Source of the DNA: Alphaproteobacteria bacterium
Lineage (GTDB): Bacteria > Pseudomonadota > Alphaproteobacteria > SHVP01
Reading direction: 5' to 3'
Length of the DNA stretch: 64,000 nucleotides
Assembly: GCA_947473325.1 (NCBI GenBank)
Contig: CANJEJ010000002.1
Location: 29,359-93,358, forward strand
The number at the start of each line of letters is the position of its first letter. Positions within the stretch are counted from its first letter, which is position 1. Shown in pieces: positions 29,290-51,142 of the stretch. The notes beneath the pieces are model-generated. The model did not search any database, was not told where the DNA came from, and was given only the letters and a program-made list of their open reading frames with translations. Position numbers and translations under genes: made by a program.

Positions 29290-29302
29290 CCGGGGAAGCA
29301 GC

Positions 29303-29686
29303 GTGACGAAGAATTTCGCCTATTGGAGCGACGATCCGCCGATGGTGCGGAAACTCGTCGGCTTGACGCGGGAAGGGCGCAAGCTCGCAACCGTGCGGCC
29401 AGCGTCGTCCTGGCTGGCGCCGATCACGCAATGGGATGACGTTCCCTACACGGAGGGCGAGGAGGCGGTGCTGCGCGACCTCGACGGCACGGCGCATCTA
29501 CGCGTCCGCTTCACCGACATCTACGGGACGACGCTTAACACCATCCCCGAGAAGCTGTGGCGCGACGAGTTCGAGCCAAGCGCGGAGGAGTTCCGCCGCG
29601 TCCACCACGTCGCCTGGGATCCGCTCGGCATCACCGGAGATACCCCGCTGATGGCGATCCACTTCGAGGTTCTCGGGCCCGCCTGA
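29303..29686 (+). CDS. hypothetical small protein (possible ASCH-like domain), GTG start
   Basis: ORF 29282..29686 with GTG at 29303 after a GGGGAAG SD, immediately downstream of the PrpD stop. Domain assignment is weak. Confidence 0.4.
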   Translation: MTKNFAYWSDDPPMVRKLVGLTREGRKLATVRPASSWLAPITQWDDVPYTEGEEAVLRDLDGTAHLRVRFTDIYGTTLNTIPEKLWRDEFEPSAEEFRRVHHVAWDPLGITGDTPLMAIHFEVLGPA

Positions 29687-29687
29687 G

Positions 29688-30152
29688 CTATTCCGACACC
29701 GGAACGGCGCGGCTGGTGAAGGCGATGGACTGGCTGCCGCGCACCGACACATTGACCGATTCGACCAGCGGCGGGCTGACCGGCTGGTCGGATTCCCAGC
29801 CGACCAGGAAATTGGCGCCCGAGCCGCCCCTGGTGTCGCGCACTTCGACGAAATATTCGACCGTCGCCATGGGCGGGATCATGCGCGCGGCTGGTTGGTG
29901 GTTGCGCAGCAGCTTGCCGTCGGTGTCGTAGTAGCGCGCGAAGAGCAGGCGCAGGGGATAGGCGGGGTCGGTGTTGCGCACGCTCACCACCGCCGACAGC
30001 AGAACCTGGTCTGGTGTGCCATTGCCCGACAGGTTGCCGTGCGGCAGGTGCGAATAGACCGGGACATAGAGCGTCTCGCCGCTCTTGCGCTCCTGCGCCA
30101 GCGCCGCGATGGCGGCGAGGATGAGCGCGATGGCGAGCAGGCCGCGCTTCAT
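29688..30152 (-). CDS. secreted protein of unknown function (DUF3124-like)
   Basis: 154 aa. Signal peptide (MKRGLLAIALILAAIAALA). YVPVYSH motif. Confidence 0.55.
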   Translation of the reverse strand: MKRGLLAIALILAAIAALAQERKSGETLYVPVYSHLPHGNLSGNGTPDQVLLSAVVSVRNTDPAYPLRLLFARYYDTDGKLLRNHQPAARMIPPMATVEYFVEVRDTRGGSGANFLVGWESDQPVSPPLVESVNVSVRGSQSIAFTSRAVPVSE

Positions 30153-30979
30153 TGCGCTTTCCCGTCGAGCCAGGCGGCGATGGCGCGGCCCTTGGCTTCC
30201 TGCGAATCGTCGCCATGCGGCAGCGCCAGCAGTGTCGCGCCGGGAATCACCGCCGCCGTCGGCGCCATGTCGGCGAACACCTCGAGGTCGGGCTGGTACA
30301 GCACGGCGGTTGGCACCTTCAGCTGTGCAACGCGCTCTTCGCGCGGCCAGGACATGGCCGCGCCGTAGGAGCGGTTGAAGGTGGCGGCCGAGGTCAGGAG
30401 TTCGACCGTCATGTCATGCATGCGTTCCGGCGAAGGCTGGCTGAACTTTCGCCGATGCGCCGCGTCGCGCGACCACCAGGGATAGAAGATGAAATGGTCG
30501 TGCATGACCTGCCAGGCCCAGCGGAACTGGCTGCCGATCGCATCGGGCTTGGGTGGCGGCTCGCCGCTGCTGCCGGTGGCGCGTGCCGGGCCTGGCACCG
30601 CGAGCTCGTCAATGATCAGGTGCCGGACGCGGTCGGGTGCGGTGAGTGCCAGCTCCGTGGCAATCATTGAGCCGGTGCGCACGCCATACAGGTCGCAGTC
30701 GGCAATGCCCATCGTGTCGAGCAGGCGGCGCAGCGCGTCGGCGAAATAGGCGATGCCGGGGTTCTCGATGCCCGGCGCGCAGGATGATCCGTTGCCCAGC
30801 GTGTCGGGCGCGATGACAGGCCGCGTCTTGCCCAGTTCCTCGACCAGTGGCAGCAGGAAGCCACTTGCCACGGGCGACATGTGGATGGCGATCAGCGGGC
30901 GCCGGGCGGGCGAACCCACGGTGCGGCGCAGGTGGACCTGGCCCTCGGCGATGCGGACAAATTCGCGGTCGATATGCAT
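30149..30979 (-). CDS. alpha/beta-hydrolase-fold protein with non-canonical nucleophile motif (G-V-R-T-G-S), family member 1
   Basis: 276 aa. HxxP oxyanion region (IAIHMSP), GQVHLRR N-terminal motif. Arg at the nucleophile-elbow position. Confidence 0.65.
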   Translation of the reverse strand: MHIDREFVRIAEGQVHLRRTVGSPARRPLIAIHMSPVASGFLLPLVEELGKTRPVIAPDTLGNGSSCAPGIENPGIAYFADALRRLLDTMGIADCDLYGVRTGSMIATELALTAPDRVRHLIIDELAVPGPARATGSSGEPPPKPDAIGSQFRWAWQVMHDHFIFYPWWSRDAAHRRKFSQPSPERMHDMTVELLTSAATFNRSYGAAMSWPREERVAQLKVPTAVLYQPDLEVFADMAPTAAVIPGATLLALPHGDDSQEAKGRAIAAWLDGKAQ

Positions 30980-31061
30980 GGCCCAAGTTTCGCACGGCCG
31001 GGTGGACGCCGTCGCGTCCTTTAGGTCATGGTTGCAGCCATAGTTTCAAAAGGGGTCGTTG

Positions 31062-32468
31062 ATGGACTGGGACGTAATCGTGGTCGGCGCCGGTACGGCG
31101 GGCATGCCGCTCGCCATCTTTGCGGCGAAGCGGGGCGCCCGCGTGCTGGTGCTGGAACAGGCCGCCACCATCGGCGGCACGCTGCCGGTCTCGGCCGGGC
31201 AGGTCAGCGCCGCCGGAACGCGGCTGCAGGCCGAACGCGGCATCGTCGATTCGCCCGACATCCACTATGCCGACGTGGTCCGCATCTCCAATGGCAACAC
31301 CACGCATGCCTTCGCGCGCCTTGCCGCCGACAATTCTGCCGACACACTGCACTGGCTGCTCGATCTCGGCTGGACGCCAATGGCGGAACATCCCGTCAAG
31401 TTCGGACACAACCCCTATTCCGTGCCGCGCACCTATTGGGGCGTGAATGCGGGTCATGACCTGATGGCGGCGGTGGAGCCCGAATTCCGGCGCGCCATCG
31501 CAACCGGCCATGTGACCTTGCGCGTCAGCACCCCGGTGATCGACCTCATCCAGAACGAAGACGGCACAGTCACCGGCGTGGTGGCGCGCGAAGCCGGCAA
31601 GGCCGAAGAACGCATCACCGCGCCCAATGTCGTGCTCGCCACCGGCGGCTATGGCGCCAGCAAGGCGCTGTTCCCGCTGTTTACCAACGGCCTGCCCGGC
31701 TTTGGCTGGGCCAACCCCACCTCCAACGGCAGCGGCCATGTGCTGGCGCTGAAGGCCGGCGGCCAGGTGAAGCGGCAGGACTTCTTCCTGCCGCGCTGGG
31801 CCGGTGTGGAAAACCCGCACGATCCCGCCCGTGCCGAACGCTACACGGAAATGGCGCCGGCACGCCGCCTGCCCTGGGAAATCTGCGTCGATCGCAGGGG
31901 CCGCCGCTTCGTCGCGGAAGACCGTATCAGCCCGGACGAACGCGAGCGTGCGCTCCTCACCGTGCCGGACCTGACCTTCTGGGTGGTCTATGACGCGCGC
32001 ATCCGGCGCGAAGCGCCGCCGCTGTTCGACAGGCCGCCGGAACCCGGCCTCGACCACTGGCTTGGCCGGCATCCCGCCTATTGCGTGGGCGATACGCTCG
32101 ACGCCGTGGCGAGGGCTGCGGGCATCGATCCAGCCGGTCTCGCGCAGACGGTGGCCGACTACAACGGCTCGGTGAAAACCGGCAAGGACGCATTTGGGCG
32201 GACGCACATGCCGCTGCCGATCGCTGAAGGCCCGTTCTACGCCATCAAGCACCATGGCGCGGGCGCGACGACGATTCCCGGCATCGAGGTGGACACGGAC
32301 ATGCGCGTGCTGCGCGCCGATGGCTCGGCTGTTCCCGGGCTCTATGCCGCCGGCGAGATCCTCGGCATGGGCCTGCACTCGGGCGACGCCTTTGTCGGCG
32401 GCATGGGGTTGATGCCGGCGCTCACCTATGGCCGGCTGCTCGGAGAACGCCTGTTGAACTGGCGCTAA
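31062..32468 (+). CDS. FAD-dependent oxidoreductase (fumarate-reductase / 3-ketosteroid-dehydrogenase-like flavoprotein)
   Basis: N-terminal DVIVVGAGTAG dinucleotide-binding motif. C-terminal motif typical of the FRD/SDH flavoprotein family. ATG at 31062 chosen over TTG at 31059. Confidence 0.8.
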   Translation: MDWDVIVVGAGTAGMPLAIFAAKRGARVLVLEQAATIGGTLPVSAGQVSAAGTRLQAERGIVDSPDIHYADVVRISNGNTTHAFARLAADNSADTLHWLLDLGWTPMAEHPVKFGHNPYSVPRTYWGVNAGHDLMAAVEPEFRRAIATGHVTLRVSTPVIDLIQNEDGTVTGVVAREAGKAEERITAPNVVLATGGYGASKALFPLFTNGLPGFGWANPTSNGSGHVLALKAGGQVKRQDFFLPRWAGVENPHDPARAERYTEMAPARRLPWEICVDRRGRRFVAEDRISPDERERALLTVPDLTFWVVYDARIRREAPPLFDRPPEPGLDHWLGRHPAYCVGDTLDAVARAAGIDPAGLAQTVADYNGSVKTGKDAFGRTHMPLPIAEGPFYAIKHHGAGATTIPGIEVDTDMRVLRADGSAVPGLYAAGEILGMGLHSGDAFVGGMGLMPALTYGRLLGERLLNWR

Positions 32469-33706
32469 GCCGCCGCCCGCTTCCGCATTTCGGCGCGCAG
32501 CGGGATCAGCAGAAGGAACAGGAAGGCCGCGACGCCGACCAGGAAACTGAGCGCAGCGTCGAAACCGCCGGTCACGTCCGCCAGCCAGCCGATGGACAGC
32601 GGGCCCAGCACGCCGCCGATCTCGGCCGCCGAGAAGAAGAGCCCGCCGGCAGCACCCATGTGGCGCGGATCGACGCCACGGGTTTCCATCAGGATCAGCA
32701 TGGCGATGGTCATCATGGTCTGGCGCGTGGCGCCCTGCAGGAACAGGCCGCCGAACAGCGCCGGCTCTGCCGAGCTGTGCAGCAGGAAGGCCGAGAAGCC
32801 GGCCGCGATATAGAGCACCGCCAGGATCCAGAGCCGGCGGGACGGGATAGCCAGCCGCGGAATCGTCAGCGCGGAAGCAATGCCGACAAGCACCGGCACG
32901 GACGCCCAGAAGCCGGCACGCGCCGCGCTCATGCCGTGGTCCTGCAGGATCGCGGGCAGCCAGTTGTTCAGGCCATGGCTGAAGAAAAAGGAACCCAGCC
33001 CGGTGAGGAGCAGAATCTGTACCGCGCGCATCTTCAGCAGGGCGAGAAAGACGCTGAGCTGTGGCGTCTTGGGTGCGGCGGCTTCGTGCCTTTCGCGCGC
33101 GCGGACTTCCTGGTGCGAAGCAATGACCCACCACAGCCCGCCCGCGGCGAAGATGACCAGCGCATAGGTCAGCATCACCAGATGCCAGTCATTGTCGAAC
33201 AGCGGCATGAGCACGGCGTAGGTCAGCGACAGGGACAGCATGCCGCCGACCGAAGGTCCGCTCATGTAGATGCCCATGGCAAAGCCGCGTTCCTTGCCGC
33301 CGAACCACTGGGCGATCAGCTTGGGGGCGCCGATCGACACTAGCGGCGCGCCGAAGCCGAACACCGCCACCGCGAAGAACAGCATCGCATAGTCATAGGA
33401 TACGGCGCGCAGCAGCCCCGACACGCCCATCACGGCGGCGCAGAGCAGCAGGCCCCGGCGCAGGCCGATACGGTCAAGAAGAGCGCCGAGCGGGATCGCG
33501 GTGACGACATAGACGAGTGGCCAGGCGCCCAGGATGCTGCCCATCGCCGCCTGGCTGAGCCCCAGTTCGGCGATGATCAGCTTGACGAGCGGGGCCATCG
33601 CCGAAGACAGCAGGCCGAAGGAGCCGTAGATGACCCACACGCCCGCCAGCATCGCCCAGCGATGCGGATGGAGCAGGGCGGGCGCGGCCGGTGCGGCGCT
33701 GGTCAT
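32465..33706 (-). CDS. MFS transporter
   Basis: 413 aa, 12 predicted TM helices, MFS signature between TM2 and TM3. Confidence 0.85.
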   Translation of the reverse strand: MTSAAPAAPALLHPHRWAMLAGVWVIYGSFGLLSSAMAPLVKLIIAELGLSQAAMGSILGAWPLVYVVTAIPLGALLDRIGLRRGLLLCAAVMGVSGLLRAVSYDYAMLFFAVAVFGFGAPLVSIGAPKLIAQWFGGKERGFAMGIYMSGPSVGGMLSLSLTYAVLMPLFDNDWHLVMLTYALVIFAAGGLWWVIASHQEVRARERHEAAAPKTPQLSVFLALLKMRAVQILLLTGLGSFFFSHGLNNWLPAILQDHGMSAARAGFWASVPVLVGIASALTIPRLAIPSRRLWILAVLYIAAGFSAFLLHSSAEPALFGGLFLQGATRQTMMTIAMLILMETRGVDPRHMGAAGGLFFSAAEIGGVLGPLSIGWLADVTGGFDAALSFLVGVAAFLFLLLIPLRAEMRKRAAA

Positions 33707-33765
33707 GAGCTCACGGGGAAAATCGGCCCGGCGTGCGCCGGGCCGTCAGGAAACGGAAAATTCGA

Positions 33766-34593
33766 TCAGGCGAGTTCGTGCCCGACGCAGAGCAGTTCGG
33801 CACCGATCTCCGACGCCGCGCCAGCTTCGAAGCCCAGGGCGGCAGGGCCGGTCCACTCCACCCAGCCCCCTTCCTTCAGGTCAAAGCGCGTGCCGGATTT
33901 GGCATCGGCCGTCGGGTAAACCCAGACCGGCGCGTCGCCATGCAGCCCATAGATCCAGCGCCGCACCGGCTGAACATCGCCCCGCTTCATGCCGGCTTCC
34001 GGCTGCCAGCCGGGCGGAATATGCACGATGACGACGGGGTGATAGCCGGGCACGGGCGACTTGCCGCCGATAGACAGGCGCTTGATCTTCCAGCCCTTGA
34101 CGCGCGGATGCGGCTCCCAGGGCAGCTTTTCCGTGTCACCAACATGGGCAGGATTGTAGTCGGTGCCCAATGCGGCGAGGTCGCCTTCGAAGGGGATGTA
34201 GTTGAAGGACAAGGGCCCGGTGCCCCATTCCAGCAGGAAGCAGCCCAGCGTGGTGACCGGGTCGATCGACATGCCATGGATGCTGCGTGGCGGCCGGTCG
34301 AGCAGCTGGCCTTCCTTGAAGTTGATCGGCCTGCCCTTGGTCATCGTCGGGCCGTCATATTCCACATAAGGCACGTTGCCGAACATGATGTAGACGAACT
34401 CGCGCGTCGGGCCGTGATGGTGCCGCGTGTGCTTCGGCATCTTGAAGCCGGTCGGCACGAAGGCAACCTTCAGGTTCTCGCCGGTCTCCTTGTTCTCGAT
34501 CAGTGTCTTGGCATAGGTGCCGGGATATTGCGGGTGCCACGGCTCCCACGGCATGGCCTTGGTATCAACGAAACGAAACGGCTCGGCGCCCAT
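33766..34593 (-). CDS. bicupin-domain protein of unknown function (paralog of 16048..16866)
   Basis: 275 aa. Shares MPW, LEWGTGP and LLCVGHELA motifs with 16048..16866. Confidence 0.6.
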   Translation of the reverse strand: MGAEPFRFVDTKAMPWEPWHPQYPGTYAKTLIENKETGENLKVAFVPTGFKMPKHTRHHHGPTREFVYIMFGNVPYVEYDGPTMTKGRPINFKEGQLLDRPPRSIHGMSIDPVTTLGCFLLEWGTGPLSFNYIPFEGDLAALGTDYNPAHVGDTEKLPWEPHPRVKGWKIKRLSIGGKSPVPGYHPVVIVHIPPGWQPEAGMKRGDVQPVRRWIYGLHGDAPVWVYPTADAKSGTRFDLKEGGWVEWTGPAALGFEAGAASEIGAELLCVGHELA

Positions 34594-34668
34594 CTGTCAC
34601 TCCCCGTGCTTTTCTTACTCTGTGTATACATGGACTGTAGGGAGCGGCCGGGGCGGGGGTCAACTGCT

Positions 34669-35412
34669 TCAACTGCCGCTGGCGGGCTGGGTCATGCCAT
34701 AGGGCTTGGCCGCCGTCTGCTGGGTGACAATCGGGAGCGTGCTGCCGTCGGGTTCGAAGAACTTGCCGGTGTCGGCGAGCGTCAGGCGGTCGATCACGCC
34801 CCACAGCAGGCCGGCGCTTTCGTCGGCGGTCAGGGCACCGGTGTTGCCGGTCGCCCGCGTCGCCACCCAGCCGGGATGGGCGCAGGCGCAGATGATGCCG
34901 CGCGGGCGCAGCGCCAGCGCGCATTGATAGACGACCTGCGTCTGCGCCGACTTGCTCGAGCGCGATTCGATATGGCCGAAGGCGGGCGTCGGGCCGACGC
35001 GGCTGGCGATGAAAAACATGGTCTTCCGTTGGCTTGCAGCGACATGGTCGGCGAAGCGTTCGGCCAGGCGCATGGGCGCCATCGAGTTGACGCGGAAATG
35101 CTCGGCCCAGCTTTCGTAGTCGGTTTCACCGAACGGGTTGGCCCTGGCCCAGGTGACGGCGCCATTGCTCAGCAGCACGTCGATCGGTGTGCCGGCGAGG
35201 CTCGCGGCGATGCCGTCGATGGCGGCGAAGTCACCCAGGTCGAGGCGGTGCAGGCTCAGCTTTCCCGCCGATGATCCCGCCAGGGCCTGCAAATCCGAGG
35301 CCTTGTCCGGGTCGCGGGCCGTGGCCAGCACGCGATGGCCCAGCGCCAGCGCCTTTCTGGTCAGGCCAAGCCCCAGGCCGCGATTGGCCCCTGTAATCAA
35401 CACGGTGGACAT
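34669..35412 (-). CDS. SDR-family oxidoreductase (C-signal/CsgA-like subgroup)
   Basis: 247 aa. TGANRGLG Rossmann motif. Confidence 0.8.
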   Translation of the reverse strand: MSTVLITGANRGLGLGLTRKALALGHRVLATARDPDKASDLQALAGSSAGKLSLHRLDLGDFAAIDGIAASLAGTPIDVLLSNGAVTWARANPFGETDYESWAEHFRVNSMAPMRLAERFADHVAASQRKTMFFIASRVGPTPAFGHIESRSSKSAQTQVVYQCALALRPRGIICACAHPGWVATRATGNTGALTADESAGLLWGVIDRLTLADTGKFFEPDGSTLPIVTQQTAAKPYGMTQPASGS

Positions 35413-35482
35413 TGGCTCTCCCTTGGTTCGCGTTAGCCAGTCAGACTAGACTGGCGCTCCTCCCCTTGCGCCCGAGGTTGCC

Positions 35483-36625
35483 ATGCCTGTCCATGCCACG
35501 CATCCCATGTTTCCCGACGCCAACCATGACGAGCAGGCGCGGCAGGATTTCATCCGCCTCTTCAAGCTGTCGGTGCAGCGCGACATCGGCACCGGCAACA
35601 AGCGGCTCTACGAGGCCAAGGTGAAGCCCGACTTCGCCCGCCGCACCGGCCGCGCGCCGAAGTCGCGGCGCGAGGTGCGCCAGGCGATGCAGGCGGAACC
35701 CTATACCCAGATGTGGAGCGCGCTGCTGCGCACCTCGCAGGAAATGCTCTACGACACGGTCGGGCCGTCGATCGAACGCCAGTTGCCCGACCTCATCAGC
35801 AAGGCGAAAGCCTATGGCGACCGCCACGGCACGCTGTCGCTCGATCCGTCGGTGGCCGTGCCGCCCTACCACGCCGCGGTCAACATTCACTGCAAGCCAG
35901 GCGGCTACCACACCGAGCTGACGCAGGACGACCTGTTCGCCGGCGCCGAATATGACCGCACCGTGCACATGTACCTGATGGGCGCGATGGGACCGAACAA
36001 CGACGACCTCGGCCGTTCCGCCGCGCTATGGGTGAAGCAGCAGTATCCGCACCTGAAGGTACGCAAGGTCCTCGACATGGGTTGCACCATCGGCCATTCG
36101 ACGCTGGCCTGGTGCGACGTGTTCCCGGACGCCGAGATTCACGCCATCGACGTCGCCGCGCCCTGTCTGCGCTATGCCCATGCCCGGGCCGAGGCGATGG
36201 GCAAGCCCGCGCATTTCCACCAGATGAACGCCGAGAAGACGGCATTCGAAGCGGGCAGCTTCGATGTCGTCGTCTCGCACCTGATGATGCACGAAACCTC
36301 GTCCCAGGCGCTGCCGCGAATCTTCAAGGAGTGCCACCGCCTGCTGAAGCCGGGCGGCGTGATGCTGCATGTCGATGCGCGCAACGTGACGGGCGAGCCT
36401 TTCGACCAGTATCAGCAGGAATGGGACGCGCATTACAACAACGAGCCCTTCTTCGGCACGCTGCATGACACCGACCTGCAAAAGCTGTCGCGCGACGCGG
36501 GCTTCGCCAGGGAGAAGGTCTTCGAGCTCTGGATCCCGTCGCATTACAAGCCGCGATCCGGGACCGAACATCACATCAACGCGGCGATGAAGGGCGATTA
36601 CTTCATGTCGGGCGCGCAGAAGTAA
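35483..36625 (+). CDS. class I SAM-dependent methyltransferase (paralog 3 of 3)
   Basis: 380 aa. VLDMGCTIGHST motif. Same conserved blocks as 22394..23515 and 23560..24702. Confidence 0.75.
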   Translation: MPVHATHPMFPDANHDEQARQDFIRLFKLSVQRDIGTGNKRLYEAKVKPDFARRTGRAPKSRREVRQAMQAEPYTQMWSALLRTSQEMLYDTVGPSIERQLPDLISKAKAYGDRHGTLSLDPSVAVPPYHAAVNIHCKPGGYHTELTQDDLFAGAEYDRTVHMYLMGAMGPNNDDLGRSAALWVKQQYPHLKVRKVLDMGCTIGHSTLAWCDVFPDAEIHAIDVAAPCLRYAHARAEAMGKPAHFHQMNAEKTAFEAGSFDVVVSHLMMHETSSQALPRIFKECHRLLKPGGVMLHVDARNVTGEPFDQYQQEWDAHYNNEPFFGTLHDTDLQKLSRDAGFAREKVFELWIPSHYKPRSGTEHHINAAMKGDYFMSGAQK

Positions 36626-36642
36626 GTCCAGCGCCCGTTCGC

Positions 36643-36676
36643 GGAAAGGCCCGCCTGTCGCGGGCCTTTCGTTTCC
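36643..36676 (+). terminator. rho-independent terminator
   Basis: GAAAGGCCCGC-CTGTC-GCGGGCCTTTC stem-loop followed by GTTTCCC. Confidence 0.55.
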
Positions 36677-36687
36677 CGGGGTCTTTC

Positions 36688-37515
36688 ATGCATGACGTCC
36701 TCGCGCACGGCGCGCGCATTCCCGCCATCGGCCTTGGCACCTTCCGGCTCAAGGACGATCACGCGCGCCAGATGGTGGAACACGCCCTCCGCCACGGCTA
36801 TCGCCATGTCGACACCGCGCAGATGTATGGCAATGAAGCGGAGGTCGGCGACGGCATCGCCGCCGCGGGCGTACCGCGCGATTCGTTCTTCGTCACGACC
36901 AAGGTGTGGCCGGACAATTTTGCCGAGGGCACGCTGCAGAATTCGGTCGAGGAGAGTCTGAGGAAGCTGCGCCTGTCTGCCGTCGATCTCGTGCTGCTGC
37001 ACTGGCCGCGCTTCGACCGGCCGATGAAGGAAACGCTGAAGGCGCTCAACCAGGTCAAGCAGCGCGGCCTTGCCCGCCACATCGGCGTCAGCAACTTCAA
37101 CGTCGCGCTGCTGCGCGAGGCCTGGTCGCTGACGGATGAGCCGCTCGTCTGCAACCAGGTCGAGTATCATCCCTACCTCGACCAGGCACCGGTGCTGAAA
37201 GAGGTGCGGGCGCGCGGCATGGCGCTCACCGCCTATCAGCCGCTGTCGCTCGGCAAGGTGTTCGAGGATGATGTGCTGGTCGGGATCGCGAAGAAACATG
37301 GCAAGACAGCGGGGCAGGTGACGTTGCGCTGGCTGATCGACCAGCCCTCGGTTGCCGCCATTCCCAAGACCGGCACGCCGGCCCGGGCGGAGGAAAACCT
37401 CGCCCTCGACTTCACTCTCTCGCCGCAGGAGCAGCAGGCCATCACGGCCCTGCATCGCCCCAACGGACGCAACCTCAACCCCGCCCGCCTGGCGCCCGCA
37501 TGGGACAAGGCCTGA
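36688..37515 (+). CDS. aldo/keto reductase (2,5-diketo-D-gluconate-reductase-like)
   Basis: 275 aa. AKR catalytic tetrad context (D-Y-K-H), IGVSNF motif. Confidence 0.85.
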   Translation: MHDVLAHGARIPAIGLGTFRLKDDHARQMVEHALRHGYRHVDTAQMYGNEAEVGDGIAAAGVPRDSFFVTTKVWPDNFAEGTLQNSVEESLRKLRLSAVDLVLLHWPRFDRPMKETLKALNQVKQRGLARHIGVSNFNVALLREAWSLTDEPLVCNQVEYHPYLDQAPVLKEVRARGMALTAYQPLSLGKVFEDDVLVGIAKKHGKTAGQVTLRWLIDQPSVAAIPKTGTPARAEENLALDFTLSPQEQQAITALHRPNGRNLNPARLAPAWDKA

Positions 37516-37523
37516 AGGATGCC

Positions 37524-39206
37524 ATGACGAATGATCCGATGAAATGGTGGCGCACGCCCAAGGGCGTGCAGCGCGCCTATGCCGACAGCCGCTTCGGCCA
37601 GTTGCATTACGCCATCGCGCGGCCGGCCAAGGCGACGGCGCTGCCGCTCGTCTGCCTGCATGCCAGTCCGTCGTCCTGGCGCAGCTGGTTCAGCGTGATT
37701 CCGGAAATGGCGAGTGATCGCATCGTCGTGGCGCCGGACACGCCGGGCCATGGCGATTCCGACCTGCCGCCGTCGCAACCCGGCATCGAGGACTACGCCG
37801 CTGCGATCGGCGAGGCGCTCGACCAGATCGGCATCCGGCGCTTTGATGCCATCGGCAACCACACCGGGTCGAAGGTCGCGGTCGAACTCGCGCGCCAGCG
37901 CCCCGACCAGGTGCGCCGCCTCGTCCTGCTCTCGGCGCCGGTCTATTCCGACGAGGAATTGAAGGCGATCAAGGCGAAATATATGGAAGTGCCGCTGCAG
38001 GAAGACGGCGGTCACATGATCAAGCGCTGGTCATCGCTGATGAACGCGATGGGCAAGGTGCTGCCCATCGACATCGTGCAGCGCTCCTACAGCGAATCCC
38101 TCCGCGGCGGCATGGAATACGAATGGGGCCATCATGCGGCCTTCGCCTACCACCACGCCGACAACCTGCCGCACCTGCCCCACCGCATCACCGTGCTGAA
38201 TCCGAAAGACGAGATTCACGAGGCGACGAAGCGGGCGAAGAAATACCTGAAGAACGGCGAGGTGATGACGCTCGATGCGGGCCACGAGCTCCTCTATCTC
38301 GAGCCGGTGCGCTTTGGCCGCATGCTGCGCCAGCACCTCGACGGACCGGCACAGGATGTCGAGCCCGGCACGGTCACGCCGAAGCCGGCGCCACCGGCGC
38401 CGAAGATCACGCCGAAACTCGCCCGCAGGCACTATATCGACGGTGAACACGGCCAGATTCACTACCGGCGCACATCGCCGCTCAGCCCGACGCAAGTCCC
38501 GCTGCTCTGCCTGCATGCAAGCCCGCAGTCGAGCCTCAATTACGCCCAGCTGATGGAGGCCATCGGCACCGACCGCATCGTCGTCGCGCCCGACACGCCG
38601 GGCTATGGCAATTCGGAATGGCCAAAGACGGCACCGGCGATCGACGACTTCGCCCGCGCCATGATCCGCCTGGTGGCTGATCTCGGCCTAAAGACTGTCG
38701 ATGTCATGGGCTTCCACACCGGCTCGCTTACGGCGACCGAGATCGCGCGGCAGAAGCCGGGTCTCGTGCGCAAGATTGTCATGTATTCGGCACCGCTTTT
38801 CGCGGAAGAAGAACTTGCGTCTTTCCGTGCTGCCTATGCGCCGCTCGTGCTGCAGCCGGACGGGTCGCACACCGTCTACCGCTGGCGCCGCATGTGGAAA
38901 TGGAAGGACCCGAAGTTCCCGATCGAGGGCTATCACGTCATCAACGCGGAGCCCTTCCGCGCCGGGCCGAATTCCTGGTGGGGGCACAACGCGGCCTTCA
39001 ACTATCCCTTCCGCGAACGCCTGCCGCTCGTCGACAAGCCGATCCTCGTCCTCAACCCGAACGACGACCTCGTCGATCATTCGCGCAATGCCATGCCGCT
39101 GATGAAGCAGGGCCGCATCCACGAGCTGCCCGACTATGGCCATGGCATGATGGACGTGCACACGCCGGAAATCGCCAAAGTCATGCGGGGTTTCCTCGAT
39201 GGCTGA
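37524..39206 (+). CDS. tandem-duplicated alpha/beta-hydrolase-fold protein with non-canonical nucleophile motifs (G-N-H-T-G-S and G-F-H-T-G-S), family members 2 and 3 fused
   Basis: ORF 37500..39206 trimmed to Met 9 after an AAGGA SD. Two homologous ~280-aa halves, each with GQ[LI]HY...LCLHASP...APDTPG[HY]G. Confidence 0.7.
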   Translation: MTNDPMKWWRTPKGVQRAYADSRFGQLHYAIARPAKATALPLVCLHASPSSWRSWFSVIPEMASDRIVVAPDTPGHGDSDLPPSQPGIEDYAAAIGEALDQIGIRRFDAIGNHTGSKVAVELARQRPDQVRRLVLLSAPVYSDEELKAIKAKYMEVPLQEDGGHMIKRWSSLMNAMGKVLPIDIVQRSYSESLRGGMEYEWGHHAAFAYHHADNLPHLPHRITVLNPKDEIHEATKRAKKYLKNGEVMTLDAGHELLYLEPVRFGRMLRQHLDGPAQDVEPGTVTPKPAPPAPKITPKLARRHYIDGEHGQIHYRRTSPLSPTQVPLLCLHASPQSSLNYAQLMEAIGTDRIVVAPDTPGYGNSEWPKTAPAIDDFARAMIRLVADLGLKTVDVMGFHTGSLTATEIARQKPGLVRKIVMYSAPLFAEEELASFRAAYAPLVLQPDGSHTVYRWRRMWKWKDPKFPIEGYHVINAEPFRAGPNSWWGHNAAFNYPFRERLPLVDKPILVLNPNDDLVDHSRNAMPLMKQGRIHELPDYGHGMMDVHTPEIAKVMRGFLDG

Positions 39207-40263
39207 GATGCAGTACCGCCCGCTCGGCAGAAGCGGCCTGCGCGTGTCGCCGATCTGCCTTGGCGTGCTGCAGTTCGGCGCCGCCGCCACGCCGGCCGAC
39301 GCGGCGGCGATGATCGACAGCGCCCGCGCTGCCGGCGTCAACTTCCTCGACGTCGCCAATGTCTATGCGCTGGGCGAGGCGGAGCGCGCGCTCGGGCCGC
39401 TGATCGCGCGCGACCGCGATAGCTGGGTGCTGGCGACCAAGGCGGGCATCGCGATGGGGCCGGGGCCGCATCGCGGCGGCCTGTCGCGCAAGCATTTGTT
39501 CGACGCACTTGACGATTCGCTGCGCCGCCTCGGCACCGACTATGTCGATATCTTCTACCTGCATGTGCCGGACGAAGAGACACCGCTCGCGGAAACGCTG
39601 CGCGCGGTCGACGACATCATCCGCTCCGGCAAGGCGCGCTATTTCGGCATCAGCAACTACCGCGCCTTCGAGATTGCCGACATCGCGCTGACCTGCGACC
39701 GCATGGGCATCGCGCGGCCCGTCGTGTGCCAGATGCTCTACAACCTTGTCGACCGCGAGGCGGAGCGCGAGATCATTCCCGCCTGCCACCAGTTCGGCAT
39801 CGCGGTCGCGCCTTACAGCCCGCTGGCGCGTGGCGTGCTCACCGGCAAATACACGGTCAACGCGCCGCTGCCCGAAGGCTCGCGCGCGGCCCGCAAGGAC
39901 CGCCGCCTGATCGAGGCGGAGCTGCGCGACGAATCGATCCTGTTCGCCGCGCAGATGGCGGAACGGGCAAAGGCGCGCGGCCTCACCCCGTCGCAATTCG
40001 CCATCGCCTGGATGCTGCGCAACCGGTTGCTCACCAGCGTCGTCACCGGGCCGCGCACGCTCGCCCAGTGGGAAGACAATCTGTCGGCCGCGACCGTCAC
40101 GCTCACGGCCGAGGACGAAGCCTTTGTGAACGCCATCGTGCCGCCAGGCTGGGGCTCCACCCCCCAGTTCAACGATCCCCTGTGGCCGCCGCTCGGCCGC
40201 GAAGCCGCGGCGGGGGAGCGAATCCGCCCGGCCAAGGCACTGCCGCCGGGTCCCAAGGCCTGA
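39199..40263 (+). CDS. aldo/keto reductase (Tas/YajO-like AKR)
   Basis: 354 aa. AKR motifs. Start overlaps the upstream stop by 8 nt. Confidence 0.85.
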   Translation: MAEMQYRPLGRSGLRVSPICLGVLQFGAAATPADAAAMIDSARAAGVNFLDVANVYALGEAERALGPLIARDRDSWVLATKAGIAMGPGPHRGGLSRKHLFDALDDSLRRLGTDYVDIFYLHVPDEETPLAETLRAVDDIIRSGKARYFGISNYRAFEIADIALTCDRMGIARPVVCQMLYNLVDREAEREIIPACHQFGIAVAPYSPLARGVLTGKYTVNAPLPEGSRAARKDRRLIEAELRDESILFAAQMAERAKARGLTPSQFAIAWMLRNRLLTSVVTGPRTLAQWEDNLSAATVTLTAEDEAFVNAIVPPGWGSTPQFNDPLWPPLGREAAAGERIRPAKALPPGPKA

Positions 40264-40391
40264 CTTTTCGCCCTCGGGCTGTCCCAGGTCTGCACAAAAA
40301 CGCACCGCTGGACTGCGCGACAGCCCCGTGGAGGGGCGGATTTGACCCAGTTTGCTGCACGTGCGAAGAAAAAATTGACGGGTCTATAAGT

Positions 40392-40405
40392 CGCAGATTT
40401 CTGCG
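40392..40405. promoter_or_regulatory. lux/tra-box-like inverted repeat CGCAGA-TT-TCTGCG, ~155 nt upstream of luxR-family gene
   Basis: Read directly. Resembles the core of the tra-box (TGCAGATCTGCA). Further TCTGCG repeats lie at ~40455-40490. Confidence 0.3.
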
Positions 40406-40559
40406 GTTTTCCACAGGCTGAGCCATGCATTCGGCTCCGATCAGGGCCTCTGTTCTGCGAATCTGCATATCACTTCTGCGACCTTTCCGAATTCGCCGTG
40501 GCGGCCCCCCTCCCTAGACTGCAGGCGTTGCAAAGGATGCACGGCCTGGGGAGCCAAGC

Positions 40560-41288
40560 ATGTTCACGGAAGCAGCGGAATTCATGGAAGTGGCGCAGCG
40601 CCCGGGCAAGCCCGACGCGGTGCGGGATCGCTTCGCCAAGGCGGTCCGGGCGCTCGGCTTCGACGCCTTCGGCTATTTCGGCATGTACGCGCCGTTCGGG
40701 GCCGAAACCTCGCCCTTCATGGTGTCGACCTTCCCGCAGTCCTGGCAGGCCCGCTACGTCGAGCACCAGTACCACCGCCATGATCCGGTGGTGGCGGAGG
40801 CGATCCGCAGCGTGATCCCGCTGCGCTGGGATGAGCTTTCCCAGCGCCGCCCGCTCCGCCCCGAAGAGGTCGCGGTCCTGGTCGAGGCGCGCGAGCATGG
40901 CCTCGTTCACGGCTTCACCGTGCCTGTGCATGGCCTCGGCGGCGAACTGGGTGTCACCAGCGTCGTCGCTGGCCCCGGCACCCGCGACTTCGACCGCTTG
41001 GTCGAGGCACACCGCCACACAATCCACCTGATGGCCGTCTACCTGCACAACGCGTTGCGCGAGCAGGCCGCGGCAATGCCAACGCGCGAGGCGCGCCTGT
41101 CGCCGCGCGAGATCGAATGCATTGCATGGACGGCACAGGGCAAGACGACCTGGGAAGTGTCGCAGATCCTGCGCCTGTCAGAAGCGACGGTAAATTTCTA
41201 CCTGCGCAACGCCATGCGGAAGCTCGGCGTGCACAGCAAGGCGCACGCGGTCGCCAAGACCCTTGTACTCGGGCTGATCCACGCATGA
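40560..41288 (+). CDS. LuxR-family transcriptional regulator with N-terminal autoinducer (AHL)-binding domain; orphan, no luxI in the window
   Basis: 242 aa. Autoinducer-binding domain residues conserved (W in QSWQARY, Y in HQYH, D-P in HRHDPVV, W in PLRWDE, G). C-terminal LuxR HTH (LSPREIECIAWTAQGKTTWEVSQIL). Confidence 0.85.
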   Translation: MFTEAAEFMEVAQRPGKPDAVRDRFAKAVRALGFDAFGYFGMYAPFGAETSPFMVSTFPQSWQARYVEHQYHRHDPVVAEAIRSVIPLRWDELSQRRPLRPEEVAVLVEAREHGLVHGFTVPVHGLGGELGVTSVVAGPGTRDFDRLVEAHRHTIHLMAVYLHNALREQAAAMPTREARLSPREIECIAWTAQGKTTWEVSQILRLSEATVNFYLRNAMRKLGVHSKAHAVAKTLVLGLIHA

Positions 41289-41485
41289 CGCCCGTTCACT
41301 CCACTTCACCGATTGAGGGCCGGGGTGATCGCTTCGGCGATCTCGCCCCAGCTGCGTTCCGTGCCGCACCCGGAACGCAGATGTCGAAGGCTGCCGGCGC
41401 CCATCGCCGTCAGCCGGTCCCTACCTCCTCAGGGACTCCTCGGCGACCTGCCTGGCGGGAACTCCGTGCCCTCAACCCCGCATAT

Positions 41486-41521
41486 CCCGTCACGATCGCG
41501 CAGTCACACAGCTGTGACGGG
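41486..41521. promoter_or_regulatory. nested inverted repeat CCCGTCAC...GTGACGGG enclosing palindrome CACAGCTGTG, ~45 nt upstream of a small ORF
   Basis: Read directly. Candidate operator, function unknown. Confidence 0.3.
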
Positions 41522-41565
41522 AATAGCTTTCCGCAACCCCGCGTTTTCAATGGGAGATGACTGAC

Positions 41566-41739
41566 ATGGCGACGATGACGTCTCAAGGGCCAAACCCCTG
41601 GCTTCTCCTGAAGCGCGCCTTCGGCCTTGCGCCCAAGCCCGCGCCGGCCACACGGGCCGCGCCGCGCCAGGCGGCCTACGACGACTACTGGGCGCTGCAG
41701 AATCGCAAAGCCTCGCGTCCGGCACCGATCAAGAAGTAG
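41566..41739 (+). CDS. small basic Pro/Ala-rich peptide ORF (57 aa), hypothetical
   Basis: GGGAGA SD 8 nt upstream of the ATG. Sits directly upstream of the pentapeptide-repeat gene. No homology recognised. Confidence 0.3.
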   Translation: MATMTSQGPNPWLLLKRAFGLAPKPAPATRAAPRQAAYDDYWALQNRKASRPAPIKK

Positions 41740-41778
41740 CCGCGCGGCACCGAAACCCTCGCCCCTCGGGAGGAGGCG

Positions 41779-42900
41779 ATGACCATGACAGTGGGCCTAA
41801 ACAGCGGGACGAATGCCATGACCCCGCACCAGCTGATCGACCTGCTGCACAGCCACTCGCGCTATGTTGCGCGGCGGGATGGCGGCAAGCGCGCCGAGCT
41901 GGTGCGCCAGGATCTCTCCGGCCTGCGACTCAAGGGCGTGGTGCTGGAAGGGGCGCGGCTTGCCGGCGCCAACCTGTCCGGCTGCGACCTGACCGGGGCG
42001 AACCTGCGCGGCGCCGACCTGTTCGGGGCGCGCCTCGATGGTGCGACGCTAGCGGGCGCCGACATGGAGCGTGCCGACCTGCGCGGCGCCTCGCTGCAGG
42101 AAGCCAGCCTGCGTTACGCCAACCTGAAGGAAGTCGACCTGCGCTCGGGCATGCTGCTGCACCATGGCGGCGATGCGGCGATGACACGCGCGATGGCGCA
42201 GCGGCCGACCCACGCCGACTTGCGCGGCACCGACCTGCAGCGCGCCAACCTGACCGCGGCGCGGCTGAAAGACGCCAACCTGACTGGCAGCAACCTGCGA
42301 GGCGCCACCGTCACGCATGCCCGTTTCGAAGGCGCCAACCTGCGCGGCGCGGTGCTGGCGGATGTGAACCTGCCGTCGGCCAACTTCACCGGCGCACGCT
42401 ACAGCGCCGCTTCGGCCGAGCTGCCCTTTGACCTGCAGGTCATCCTGCGCGACCACGCGCTGTGGGCGGACTCAGCGGGGAGCCGCGGCGTGCGCGCCCT
42501 GCTGCGCGGCGTCGACCTGCGCGGCCTCAACCTCGCCTTCGCCTATCTCAACGGCGCCGACCTGCTGGGCGCCGACCTGCGCAACTGCAACCTGGCGGAC
42601 AGCGAGTTCGTACTCGCCAACCTGATGGAAGCGCGGCTCGACAAGGCGAACCTGCGCAAGGCCGACCTCTCGGGCGCCTGCCTGCGGGCGGCGACGCTGA
42701 CGGGCGCCTGCCTGGAACGCGCACGCTTCGCCACGGTCGACGTCAAGGACGCCAGGGGCCAGCCCACGGGGCGCAACCGCGCCACCGACCTGCGCGGCGC
42801 CGACCTGACCGATGCCGACCTGTCGCAGACCGACCTGTCGGCGGCCATCCCGGTCCATGGCGCCCCCGAACCGGAAACCGACGACGTGCCGCGCAACTAG
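41779..42900 (+). CDS. pentapeptide-repeat protein (two repeat domains)
   Basis: 373 aa. Long runs of A(D/N)LxG pentapeptides (ANLSGCDLTGANLRGADLFGARLDGATLAGADM...). Paralog of 56750..58021. Confidence 0.8.
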   Translation: MTMTVGLNSGTNAMTPHQLIDLLHSHSRYVARRDGGKRAELVRQDLSGLRLKGVVLEGARLAGANLSGCDLTGANLRGADLFGARLDGATLAGADMERADLRGASLQEASLRYANLKEVDLRSGMLLHHGGDAAMTRAMAQRPTHADLRGTDLQRANLTAARLKDANLTGSNLRGATVTHARFEGANLRGAVLADVNLPSANFTGARYSAASAELPFDLQVILRDHALWADSAGSRGVRALLRGVDLRGLNLAFAYLNGADLLGADLRNCNLADSEFVLANLMEARLDKANLRKADLSGACLRAATLTGACLERARFATVDVKDARGQPTGRNRATDLRGADLTDADLSQTDLSAAIPVHGAPEPETDDVPRN

Positions 42901-42985
42901 TCATCCAGCCCTTGCCCGCGCGTCCCGTCCTGTCACAATGACCTCGGCCCCGTTTCGGGGCCGTTGTCATTCAGGCGGGGCGGAC

Positions 42986-43417
42986 ATGGCAGGGTATTTC
43001 GAAACCCAGCGCGGCGTCGTGCAGGCGTGGGAATGTGACCACATGGGTCACCTCAACACGACCTTCTACATGCAGAAATTCAGCGAGGCGGGGGCGCAGC
43101 TCACCGCCCGCATCGGGCTGACGCGCCTCTACATGGACGAAAGCGGCGGCGGCATGGCCGCGCTCGAACACATCATCAAGTACCGCCGCGAGCTGCGCGC
43201 GGGCGATGTTACGCTGGTCGAAAGCGGCATGCTCGAGGTTGGCAACAAGACGATCCGCTTCCTCCACCGCCTGCTCAACGCGACGACGCTGGAGCTGGCG
43301 GCGACCATGGAAGGCGTCGCCTGCTATTTCGATCGCAACACGCGAAAATCCGAACCGCTGCCCGACTTCATGCGCGCGAAGTCGCTGGCCCTCATTGTCG
43401 AACGCAAGGATGACTGA
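42986..43417 (+). CDS. hotdog-fold acyl-CoA thioesterase (4HBT/YbgC-like)
   Basis: ORF 42812..43417 trimmed to Met 59 (MAGYFETQRGVVQAWECDHMGHLNTTFYM...), the typical 4HBT motif. Confidence 0.75.
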   Translation: MAGYFETQRGVVQAWECDHMGHLNTTFYMQKFSEAGAQLTARIGLTRLYMDESGGGMAALEHIIKYRRELRAGDVTLVESGMLEVGNKTIRFLHRLLNATTLELAATMEGVACYFDRNTRKSEPLPDFMRAKSLALIVERKDD

Positions 43418-43418
43418 C

Positions 43419-44201
43419 ATGCGTTGTGGTTACGTCGATCTTCCCGCCGGCCAGGTGCATTACCGCCGCGCCGGTGATTCCGGCCCCTGGGTGTTCCTGT
43501 TCCACCAGACTCCGCTGTCGTCGCGCATGTATGAACCGACGCTGCCCGAACTGGGCAAGACCTGTCGCGCGGTCGCCTTCGACACGCCGGGCTATGGCGG
43601 TTCGGCGCCGCCCGCCGGGCCGACCACGGTGAACGATTATGCGACGCGCCTGCTTGCGGCGATCGACACTTTCACCACCGGAAACTTCGTGTTGGTCGGC
43701 GTCGCCACCGGTTGCGCCGTGTCGCTGGAAATCGCCCGCCTCGCCGGCAAGCGGGTAACCCATGCCGTCTTCAGCGGCGCGCCGCTGCTCACCCCCGCAC
43801 GCATGGCGCATTTCCGCGCCCAGCTCGGCGAGCCCGCCGTCAAGGAAGACGGCAGCCACCTGCTGCAGGTGTGGAAAAGCCGCCGCGGCAACTGGGGTGA
43901 CGAAGCCCCCATGGACCAGATGATGATGGCGGCGTCGGAAACCATCCGGGTCTACGACCGGCTGAACTGGGGCCTGCTCGCTGTGACGCGCTATGACGTG
44001 CGCGCGGCGCTTGAGGCCCTGACCTGTCCGGTCCTGTTCATCTCGGCGGGCTTCGACAAGCTCGCGCCCGAGAATGAGGCGGCGGCCAGCGTCGTGCGCC
44101 ACAGCGTGCAGAAAGTCATCCCCGGTGTGCCGCCGCAGCTCTGCTGGACCGCGCCACAAGCTTACGCGCGGGAAATCAGCTCTTTCATTGGCGCTGGTTG
44201 A
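43419..44201 (+). CDS. alpha/beta-hydrolase-fold protein with non-canonical nucleophile motif (G-V-A-T-G-C), family member 4
   Basis: ORF 43206..44201 trimmed to Met 72 (an alternative ATG at 43410 overlaps the thioesterase stop). GQVHYRR and FLFHQTP motifs as in the other family members. Confidence 0.65.
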   Translation: MRCGYVDLPAGQVHYRRAGDSGPWVFLFHQTPLSSRMYEPTLPELGKTCRAVAFDTPGYGGSAPPAGPTTVNDYATRLLAAIDTFTTGNFVLVGVATGCAVSLEIARLAGKRVTHAVFSGAPLLTPARMAHFRAQLGEPAVKEDGSHLLQVWKSRRGNWGDEAPMDQMMMAASETIRVYDRLNWGLLAVTRYDVRAALEALTCPVLFISAGFDKLAPENEAAASVVRHSVQKVIPGVPPQLCWTAPQAYAREISSFIGAG

Positions 44202-44296
44202 CAGGTCGCAGCTCGCTCCCGATGTAACCCGGAACGAGGCGTTCGCCGCTGTAAGCCTTATGTAACAATGGCACAGGGGCTTTGGTGGGGCACCGC

Positions 44297-51102: not shown

Positions 51103-51142
51103 GTATCTGAACAAAGCCCACTGCGAGACAAAATAGCCCGCC

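Follow-up and report, generated by a model that had tools for sequence, protein, structure and literature searches.

Genes and domain copies

We describe three genes encoding four related alpha/beta-hydrolase (ABH) domains in a stretch of alphaproteobacterial DNA of 64,000 nucleotides (GenBank assembly GCA_947473325.1, contig CANJEJ010000002.1), which is referred to here as the window. The three open reading frames (ORFs), the kinship of their four domains and the tandem duplication within the second gene had been noted in an initial annotation made from the sequence alone, and are upheld by BLASTP and Pfam. The genes are the following.

30149..30979, minus strand: ABH1, a single ABH domain of 276 amino acids in a sub-clade with an Arg elbow (ORF and translation)
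37524..39206, plus strand: ABH2, a tandem two-domain ABH protein of 560 amino acids
43419..44201, plus strand: ABH3, a single ABH domain of 260 amino acids in a sub-clade with an Ala elbow

The window has a GC content of about 66%, and all three ORFs show a coding-type third-position bias (GC3 0.78-0.85). A further in-frame ATG is present upstream of ABH2 at 37500, but the start at 37524 was preferred because the homologues are 560 residues long and the upstream gene ends at 37515. The four domains are mutually related, with 29-38% identity (BLASTP, E 1e-9 to 1e-62). Within ABH2 the domain is duplicated, and the N-terminal and C-terminal halves share 38% identity (E 1e-57 to 2e-62). Both halves are under purifying selection; dN/dS is 0.11 against a 90%-identical gene in a close relative (L001), and 0.13 and 0.09 for the two halves.

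All three proteins match the ABH superfamily in Pfam (PF00561 / PF12697). The Abhydrolase_1 scores are 32.2 bits for ABH1, 105.7 bits over two stretches for ABH2 and 43.3 bits for ABH3, compared with a gathering cutoff of 25.8, and ABH2 contains two Abhydrolase_1/6 stretches. A profile built from the family matches ABH1 with E 7e-82 and ABH3 with E 4e-98, and a search with this profile found no further member in the 64-kb window. Two motifs that had been described as shared by the genes are less uniform than reported: GQ[VLI]H[YL]RR is replaced by GQLHYAI in the N-terminal half of ABH2 and is found elsewhere, and APDTPG[HY]G holds for ABH2 but reads APDTLGNG in ABH1 and AFDTPGYG in ABH3.

Assignment of the nucleophile elbow

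The ABH fold is among the largest enzyme superfamilies, and its chemistry is taught as that of a nucleophile (Ser, Cys or Asp) with a His and an acid. The sequences at the elbow that normally bears the nucleophile read exactly as first annotated.

30668..30685, minus strand: ABH1 elbow G-V-R-T-G-S, with Arg101 at the nucleophile position, in the same alignment column as the His of sister clades
37854..37871, plus strand: ABH2 N-domain elbow G-N-H-T-G-S, at the strand-turn-helix position in the model and marked by conservation and covariation
38709..38726, plus strand: ABH2 C-domain elbow G-F-H-T-G-S
43698..43715, plus strand: ABH3 elbow G-V-A-T-G-C, with Ala96 at the nucleophile position

The occupancy of the nucleophile position by Arg, His, His and Ala is upheld by alignments to Ser and Asp enzymes and by two AlphaFold models. 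In a phmmer comparison with Protein Data Bank (PDB) sequences, the IGNHTGS of ABH2 aligns with AAHDVGA of Cif-like 2 and IGHDWGG of soluble epoxide hydrolase, while a 57-sequence family profile places GvhTGa opposite GHSTGG of chloroperoxidase L and GVSMGG of Est1. The elbow His column corresponds to D106 of DhaA (IHDWGS) in the family-profile alignment. The AlphaFold2 models were of high confidence (ABH2, pLDDT 95.0 and pTM 0.93; ABH3, pLDDT 94.8). In both, the elbow residue forms a single-residue turn from strand beta5 to helix alphaC; in ABH3 this is Ala96, between strand 90-95 and helix 97-112. The structural hallmarks of the fold are present, with helices on either side of a central beta-sheet, a strand-turn-helix elbow following beta5 and a cap that separates beta6 from beta7.

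These alignments and models indicate that the elbow is correctly assigned and that the four domains lack a canonical Ser, Cys or Asp nucleophile. A misplaced elbow, or a canonical triad hidden elsewhere, is ruled out by the agreement between the Ser- and Asp-enzyme alignments and the secondary structure of the models; no Ser-His-Asp triad was found at the standard positions in the profile alignments or models. The nucleophile motif of catalytic ABH members (Sm-X-Nu-X-Sm with Ser, Cys or Asp) is absent from all four domains. The acidic residue expected of such members is present: the Asp after beta7 lies in NPKDE of the ABH2 N domain, NPNDD of the ABH2 C domain and GFDKL of ABH3, where it is conserved at 93%, at 99% and invariantly, respectively. 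ABH1 has an Asp in QPDLE which is not conserved within its clade. The classical His of the beta8 loop is found in both ABH2 domains and in ABH1, and is absent from ABH3. The rare relatives with Ser or Asp at the elbow also lack the canonical base His.

A clade with histidine at the elbow

A search of 1.84 billion representative sequences (50%-identity clusters) with the family profile returned about 2,280 representatives at E<=1e-30, and the best 150 of these are nearly all two-domain proteins of about 560 residues. Among 708 aligned domains the elbow residue is His in 498, Gly in 61, Arg in 54, Ala in 33, Ser in 10 and Asp in 7. The initial statement that the nucleophile position is not conserved is therefore true of the four window domains among themselves, but not of the clade, where His is the consensus and Arg and Ala are fixed in sub-clades. 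G-x-H-T-G is the consensus of a large uncharacterized clade, here called the HTG clade, and not a drifting position. Its thousands of sequence clusters come from actinomycetes and from alphaproteobacteria of aquatic habitats.

ABH2 itself has more than 75 full-length two-domain homologue clusters, chiefly from alphaproteobacterial metagenome bins. Within 71 aligned tandem orthologues the elbow His is retained in 67 N-terminal and 70 C-terminal halves, the Thr that follows it in 66 and 71, respectively, and the C-half Gly in all 71. The clade signature was taken as H-x-[ST]-P ... D-T-x-G-x-G-x-S ... G-x-H-T-G ... D-x-L after beta7, together with a match to the family profile. It is complete in both ABH2 domains, and ABH1 and ABH3 are profile-matching elbow variants.

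The initial annotation had also described a Ser or Cys two residues after the nucleophile position as conserved, and had raised the possibility that it serves as a shifted nucleophile. The residue is in fact the third after the elbow residue and does read S, S, S and C in the four window domains, which is what speaks for the proposal, but it is not conserved in the homologues. Ala is the commonest residue there, being found in 95 of 121 proteins of the ABH3 group and in 63% of His-type domains clade-wide. The position falls in the first turn of helix alphaC, where a small residue (Gly, Ala or Ser) is normal for canonical ABH elbows, as in GHSMGG and in the HDWGS of DhaA. We consider a nucleophile at this site scarcely credible, and the proposal was dropped.

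The clade is nearest to the Abhydrolase_1 lactonases, haloperoxidases, epoxide hydrolases and dehalogenases. Its members carry automatic names such as 'alpha/beta hydrolase', 'pimeloyl-ACP methyl ester carboxylesterase', 'haloalkane dehalogenase', 'Haloacetate dehalogenase H-1' and 'Tropinesterase'. The specific names (BioH-type esterase, haloacetate dehalogenase, tropinesterase) are misleading; the BioH name used by JGI is generic.

Some architectural variation was seen. In several members (P0081, P0083, P0085, P0089, P0090) a VOC/glyoxalase domain is fused to a GYHTGA hydrolase domain, and one protein of 736 residues (P0361) has three domains. Some single-domain members among P0076-P0108 carry signal or Tat-like leaders; signal peptides on some members fit a cofactor-free, hydrolase-type chemistry.

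Residues that vary with the elbow histidine

We compared 218 His-type domains with 138 other domains of the family, non-redundant at 60% identity. Several polar residues accompany the elbow His: the Ser of H-x-S-P (77% of His-type compared with 20% of other domains), the Thr of D-T-x-G (75% and 19%, the usual residue in the others being Leu), the Thr after the elbow (92% and 38%), a cap Tyr (65% and 24%, with His the second commonest residue) and the Asp after beta7 (83% and 43%). The quartet of elbow His, Ser, Thr and Asp is complete in 143 of the 218 His-type domains. In a mean-field direct-coupling analysis (DCA; Meff 528), the couplings of the elbow to the enriched positions and to the residue after beta6 rank 20-69 of 30,643 pairs. 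In ABH2 these and neighbouring motifs are located as follows.

37656..37670, plus strand: N domain, LHASP with the partner Ser
37731..37760, plus strand: N domain, APDTPG with the partner Thr
38199..38213, plus strand: N domain, NPKDE with the Asp after beta7
38274..38288, plus strand: N domain, DAGHE with the beta8-loop His
38511..38525, plus strand: C domain, LHASP with the partner Ser
38586..38615, plus strand: C domain, APDTPG with the partner Thr
38859..38870, plus strand: C domain, DGSH of the cap
38979..38990, plus strand: C domain, WGH of the cap
39054..39068, plus strand: C domain, NPNDD with the Asp after beta7
39132..39146, plus strand: C domain, DYGHG with the beta8-loop His

In the family-profile alignment, the Ser of H-x-S-P and the Thr after the elbow align to Asn41 and Trp107 of DhaA. 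These are the two halide-stabilizing active-site residues beside the nucleophile in haloalkane dehalogenases; by this analogy the Ser and Thr side chains very probably face the elbow residue.

Such an arrangement could also describe a relocated triad in which the Ser or Thr of H-x-[ST]-P, on the beta3 loop, is the nucleophile, the elbow His activates it and the beta7 Asp orients the His. The three residues are co-conserved, as the 143 complete quartets attest, the pairs 33-98 and 98-216 rank 42 and 69 in the DCA, and the Ser occupies the position of DhaA Asn41, whose side chain faces the nucleophile. Against this, the Ser is replaced by Thr in about 8% and by Ala in about 6% of His-type domains, and this combined figure of about 14% leaves a conservation that is low for an essential nucleophile. 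We regard the relocated triad as rather improbable.

The classical base His behaves differently from this set. Among the ABH2 orthologues it is present in 51 of 71 and 48 of 71 halves, and of 101 His-type domains with an aligned loop 41 have it and 60 do not; the Asp is kept in 41 of those 60. As far as can be judged from these alignments, the classical base His appears to be dispensable and to stand outside the covarying set. The cap motif D-G-x-H...W is present in 81% of degenerate and 91% of His-type domains, and its coupling to the elbow ranks 29,858 of 30,643; it looks structural.

Arginine, alanine and half-degenerate tandem variants

Arg in the ABH1 sub-clade and Ala in the ABH3 sub-clade are each fixed. 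The ABH1 sub-clade comprises about 50 clusters, down to about 45% identity, all with GVRTG[SAG]. It lacks both the beta7 Asp and the beta8-loop His, whereas its sister clade, with G[ST]HTGA, keeps the Asp. The probable role of ABH1 is binding of an anionic group and not that of a base; it may be the least enzyme-like of the four domains. One ABH1-clade protein (P0273), 57% identical to ABH1, is labelled 'Laminaria digitata' by NCBI; it is encoded on a contig of 1,085 bp and is most likely a bacterial contamination of the algal assembly.

The elbow of the ABH3 sub-clade is G[FV]ATG[ASC], and its sister clades have GxHTGA. A Cys is found in the loop that normally bears the catalytic His.

44133..44147, plus strand: ABH3 loop P-Q-L-C-W after beta8, with Cys242, placed relative to beta8 in the model

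Within the ABH3 group this loop Cys accompanies an elbow Ala in 18 of 19 proteins and an elbow His in 1 of 100; the His-elbow proteins have His or Pro at the position. A functional group seems to have moved, in the Ala clade, from the elbow to the neighbouring beta8 loop.

This exchange bears on two further readings. Replacement of His by Cys is what would be expected of a nucleophile or a ligand, and the elbow His could itself be the reactive group, either as a covalent nucleophile (through an acyl-, alkyl- or phospho-imidazole) or as a metal ligand. A covalent imidazole intermediate would be stabilized by the alphaC helix dipole and the oxyanion hole, and the G-x-H-T-G-A elbow is similar to the phosphohistidine loop of succinyl-CoA synthetase, G-H-A-G-A. 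We hold a reactive elbow His to be quite improbable.

The second reading is a catalytic metal bound by the elbow His (or by the loop Cys in the Ala clade) together with other His, Asp or Tyr residues. Metal ligands typically show such an exchange of His for Cys between adjacent positions, the elbow His, loop His, cap DG-x-H, WG[HY] and Asp of ABH2 would all surround the site, and the metal-dependent VOC and cupin-like proteins occur among the fusions and neighbours. However, the cap DG-x-H is nearly as frequent in degenerate domains as in His-type domains and, as given above, is uncoupled from the elbow, the loop His is optional and the Arg clade is unable to ligate a metal. To our knowledge a site of this kind has no precedent in the ABH fold, and we find it highly doubtful.

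Tandem proteins provide a further comparison. Among 118 representatives, 24 have the elbow His in both halves, 75 in one half and 19 in neither, so that 99 retain at least one His site. In the 75 proteins with a single His the other half commonly has Gly, with the partner residues lost as well; the 19 without His usually have Ala, Ser, Asp, Arg or Lys in the N-terminal half and Gly in the C-terminal half. That most tandem proteins keep one or two sites complete is to be expected if the site does something.

Comparison with known families

No match to a well-characterized hydrolase subfamily was found, and no curated family covers the motif. The scores of the three proteins are far below the cutoffs of the specific models, and membership of the PcaD, BioH, HLD, RutD, MenH, BchO and PHA-depolymerase families was rejected. 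For the NCBIfam HLD model, ABH2 scores 80.6 bits and the other two proteins 43.6 and 22.2, compared with a cutoff of 241. The PcaD model TIGR02427 gives 102.0, 62.4 and 41.5 bits (cutoff 255.85) and the BioH model TIGR01738 gives 47.6, 38.7 and 16.2 bits (cutoff 206.95); the Ser nucleophile is absent in both cases. PDB sequence comparisons found no solved structure of a clade member.

The Asp-nucleophile ABH enzymes include the Cif-like and soluble epoxide hydrolases and the fluoroacetate and haloalkane dehalogenases (7jqz, 7ac0, 3r3u, DhaA). Where these have Asp, the clade has His, Arg or Ala. It has also lost the Gly of HGXP, reading H-[AMQ]-[ST]-P, carries Thr rather than Trp or Arg after the elbow and treats the base His as optional, and the window proteins fall outside the epoxide hydrolases, haloalkane dehalogenases and fluoroacetate dehalogenases. 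In the Ser-nucleophile Abhydrolase_1 enzymes (chloroperoxidase L/F with GHSTGG, Est1, PcaD, AidH, BphD/HsaD) the Ser corresponds to the His of the clade, which differs further in having no conserved base His.

ABH enzymes that work without a nucleophile are known. Tomato methylketone synthase MKS1, which has an Ala elbow, and the hydroxynitrile lyases demonstrate that the fold can catalyse reactions without a covalent intermediate, by means of general acid-base residues and the oxyanion region. These enzymes need the classical beta8 His, whereas in the clade that His appears dispensable and the conserved imidazole is on the elbow; the likeness is at the level of the fold.

Non-catalytic ABH proteins are also well known, among them the NDRG proteins, neuroligins and GID1, which like the clade lack a canonical nucleophile. 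Pseudo-enzymes acting in ligand binding, sensing or scaffolding, with an elbow that merely shapes a pocket, would account for the missing nucleophile and optional base His, for the tolerance of Arg, Ala, Gly, Ser, Asp and Lys at the elbow clade-wide and for the loss of both acid and base in the ABH1 clade. The data that disagree with this explanation are the polar constellation that covaries with the elbow His, the pairing of elbow Ala with a compensating loop Cys, the fact that most tandem proteins keep the His site in one half or both and the translational coupling of the genes within catabolic operons. The weak likeness to Ndr (PF03096) is confined to ABH2, at 23.0 bits compared with a gathering cutoff of 23.3, and ABH1 and ABH3 have no match; the covarying polar site and the metabolic-operon setting likewise set the clade apart from that family. 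A purely non-catalytic role is in our opinion unlikely.

Proposed mechanism

We favour, with a probability of roughly 45%, the interpretation that the clade consists of active enzymes with a non-canonical His-centred site, in which the elbow His is a general base and catalysis is not covalent. Clade membership, conservation, covariation, fold and gene neighbourhoods are matters of observation; what we infer is that the proteins are catalytically competent, what the residues do and which class of substrate is involved. No classical acyl- or alkyl-enzyme would form on Ser or Asp. Instead, with its orientation set by the beta7 Asp, the elbow His would serve as general base towards water or the substrate, and a carbonyl or carboxylate oxygen would be held by the intact oxyanion-hole backbone together with the Ser and Thr hydroxyls, the Ser or Thr of H-x-[ST]-P corresponding to the X of the HGXP oxyanion loop. 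The cap Tyr or His would aid the leaving group.

Under this scheme ABH2 would have two complete His-centred sites; ABH3 comes from a sub-clade in which Ala is fixed and a Cys of the beta8 loop seems to compensate for it. Small metabolites with a carbonyl or carboxylate group, for example esters, lactones or ring-fission products, are the probable substrates, and the products of conserved neighbouring genes would take part in their processing, namely the aldo-keto reductase, methyltransferase and flavoprotein in this window and the cupin-like protein, enoyl-CoA hydratase and CoA ligase in actinobacteria.

Several points weigh against the general-base interpretation. Its spatial arrangement is derived from covariation and from DhaA homology, and covariation may reflect shared descent or function rather than contact. 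The elbow is also Ala, Ser, Asp, Arg or Lys in relatives, so that His is not universally required, and even in His-type domains the HxSP Ser reaches only 77% and the Asp 83%. No known pathway matches the clade neighbourhoods, and the neighbours define no pathway of their own. Finally, we know of no precedent for a His-Asp dyad at the nucleophile position of the ABH fold.

The plasticity of the ABH fold is well known. The window samples a large clade of this fold, whose site is conserved, non-canonical and centred on His, through four domains in three states (His, His, Arg, Ala+Cys). The full-text literature searched, an incomplete library, yielded no account of a GXHXG motif or of an ABH elbow bearing His, and a 2024 classification paper does not mention a His elbow. 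An elbow imidazole that is kept, a classical His that is dropped and conserved metabolic operons together suggest that, on a scaffold that is very well known, the clade may have arrived at another way of catalysis. If it is inactive, it would be one of the largest bacterial pseudo-hydrolase families. The covarying set, the Arg and Ala/Cys variants and the half-degenerate tandem proteins constitute a ready-made mutational design.

Gene neighbourhood

The genes around the three ABH genes are listed below in order (plus strand unless stated), followed by those discussed further.

Left part: PrpD-family gene (27955..29289), ASCH, DUF3124 (minus), ABH1 (minus), FAD_binding_2 flavoprotein, major facilitator superfamily transporter (minus)
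Middle part: cupin-like protein of 275 amino acids (minus), short-chain dehydrogenase/reductase (minus), methyltransferase of 380 amino acids, aldo-keto reductase (AKR) of 275 amino acids, ABH2, AKR of 354 amino acids
Right part: LuxR-type regulator, pentapeptide-repeat protein, 4HBT thioesterase, ABH3, penicillin-amidase family gene
31059..32468, plus strand: FAD_binding_2 flavoprotein (flavocytochrome c / TcuA / KstD-like), divergent from ABH1
33766..34593, minus strand: weakly cupin-like protein, 275 amino acids (Cupin_7 23.3 bits, below cutoff; PDB 3ebr, E 0.012)
35483..36625, plus strand: S-adenosylmethionine (SAM)-dependent methyltransferase, 380 amino acids (Pfam), with an N-terminal half that has no Pfam match
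36688..37515, plus strand: DkgB-like AKR, 275 amino acids (Pfam E 1e-56), directly upstream of ABH2
39199..40263, plus strand: AKR of 354 amino acids, AKR354 (Pfam E 6e-64), overlapping the end of ABH2 by 8 bp
42812..43417, plus strand: 4HBT-fold thioesterase (Pfam 4HBT_2 E 7e-25), directly upstream of ABH3

The spacing agrees with the operons first proposed, in which ABH2 was grouped with two AKRs and ABH3 with a thioesterase and an acylase. ABH2 starts at 37524, after the end of the first AKR at 37515, and runs into the second, which starts at 39199; the thioesterase ends at 43417, ABH3 starts at 43419 and the acylase starts at 44282. ABH1 overlaps its downstream DUF3124 gene by 4 bp.

Close relatives (L001, L015) are syntenic with the window. 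In more distant alphaproteobacterial contigs two arrangements recur, a tandem ABH gene followed by AKR354 and a methyltransferase near an ABH gene; clade paralogues are clustered, and the flavoprotein, pentapeptide protein and cupin-like protein recur as well. AKR354 orthologues directly follow the tandem ABH gene in L003 and L005/6 (57% identity) and one lies near a secreted clade member in L012 (38%). The 275-residue AKR scores 265 bits against NCBIfam DkgB, under the cutoff of 327, and has orthologues only in L001 and L015. Orthologues or paralogues of the methyltransferase, which has generic class-I matches only, stand beside clade genes in L001, L005/6, L007/8 and L009/10 (46-96% identity). 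Flavoprotein orthologues (about 50%) are found directly upstream of the ABH3 orthologue in L007/8 and also in L003, a 57% orthologue of the cupin-like protein adjoins the tandem ABH gene in L005, and the pentapeptide protein is kept near ABH3-type or tandem hydrolase genes in L001, L003 and L005/6 (45-92%). The 4HBT thioesterase and acylase beside ABH3 have no orthologues at the other loci compared.

In Actinomadura, Nocardioides and Micromonospora a GVHTGA member is part of a conserved operon. It contains an SBP_bac_5 ATP-binding cassette transporter, a Cupin_7-like protein, the ABH protein, an enoyl-CoA hydratase, a small protein and a CoA ligase, and includes GntR, MaoC/mesaconyl-CoA hydratase, a luciferase-like oxygenase, a family III CoA-transferase and a PrpD-family protein. 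The cupin-like, ABH and enoyl-CoA hydratase genes are joined by 4-bp overlaps inside these CoA-dependent catabolic clusters. Homology between the window cupin-like protein and the actinobacterial Cupin_7-like neighbour is not significant (BLASTP E 0.075), and the PDB matches are weak. The setting of the clade genes is small-molecule catabolism, and it is reasonable to guess at a hydrolytic step that follows a dioxygenase-like one or accompanies carbonyl reduction.

Other genes of the window

The methyltransferase at 35483..36625 (plus strand) is one of three paralogous SAM-dependent methyltransferases of 380-423 amino acids in the window, the others lying at 22280..23515 (plus) and 23560..24831 (minus). 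In each, an N-terminal half of about 190-230 residues has no Pfam family. Methyltransferases of this type also neighbour HTG-clade genes in four further genome contexts, in two of them as adjacent duplicate copies, and the methyltransferase and hydrolase families appear to expand together. The cupin-like protein (33766..34593) carries a His-rich motif, HTRHHHG.

The penicillin-amidase gene downstream of ABH3 (44282..46567, plus strand) is closest to D-succinylase (7ea4, E 3e-39) and not to the N-acyl homoserine lactone acylases; a quorum-quenching reading of the ABH3 operon was dropped because of this D-succinylase likeness. Seven base pairs after it begins a homologue of the bacterial GH3-family acyl-acid amido synthetases (46574..48112, plus strand), so that an amide-cleaving and an amide-forming enzyme are side by side, which is an unusual pairing. 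Upstream, a LuxR-type autoinducer-binding regulator (40560..41288, plus strand) is followed by the 373-residue pentapeptide-repeat protein (41779..42900, plus strand); no LuxI synthase is among the annotated genes of the window.

To the left, the stops and starts of prolyl oligopeptidase (S9), MmgE/PrpD-family and ASCH-domain genes (25892..29686, plus strand) overlap, and these genes appear to be an operon that converges on ABH1-DUF3124. The actinobacterial hydrolase operons (L013, L014) likewise end in an MmgE/PrpD gene. To the right, a cluster of amine oxidase, DUF1365 and cyclopropane-fatty-acid-synthase-like genes (48914..52390, plus strand) is syntenic with L003 (GCA_009694165.1), which also has two tandem hydrolases, an AKR and an ABH3 orthologue.

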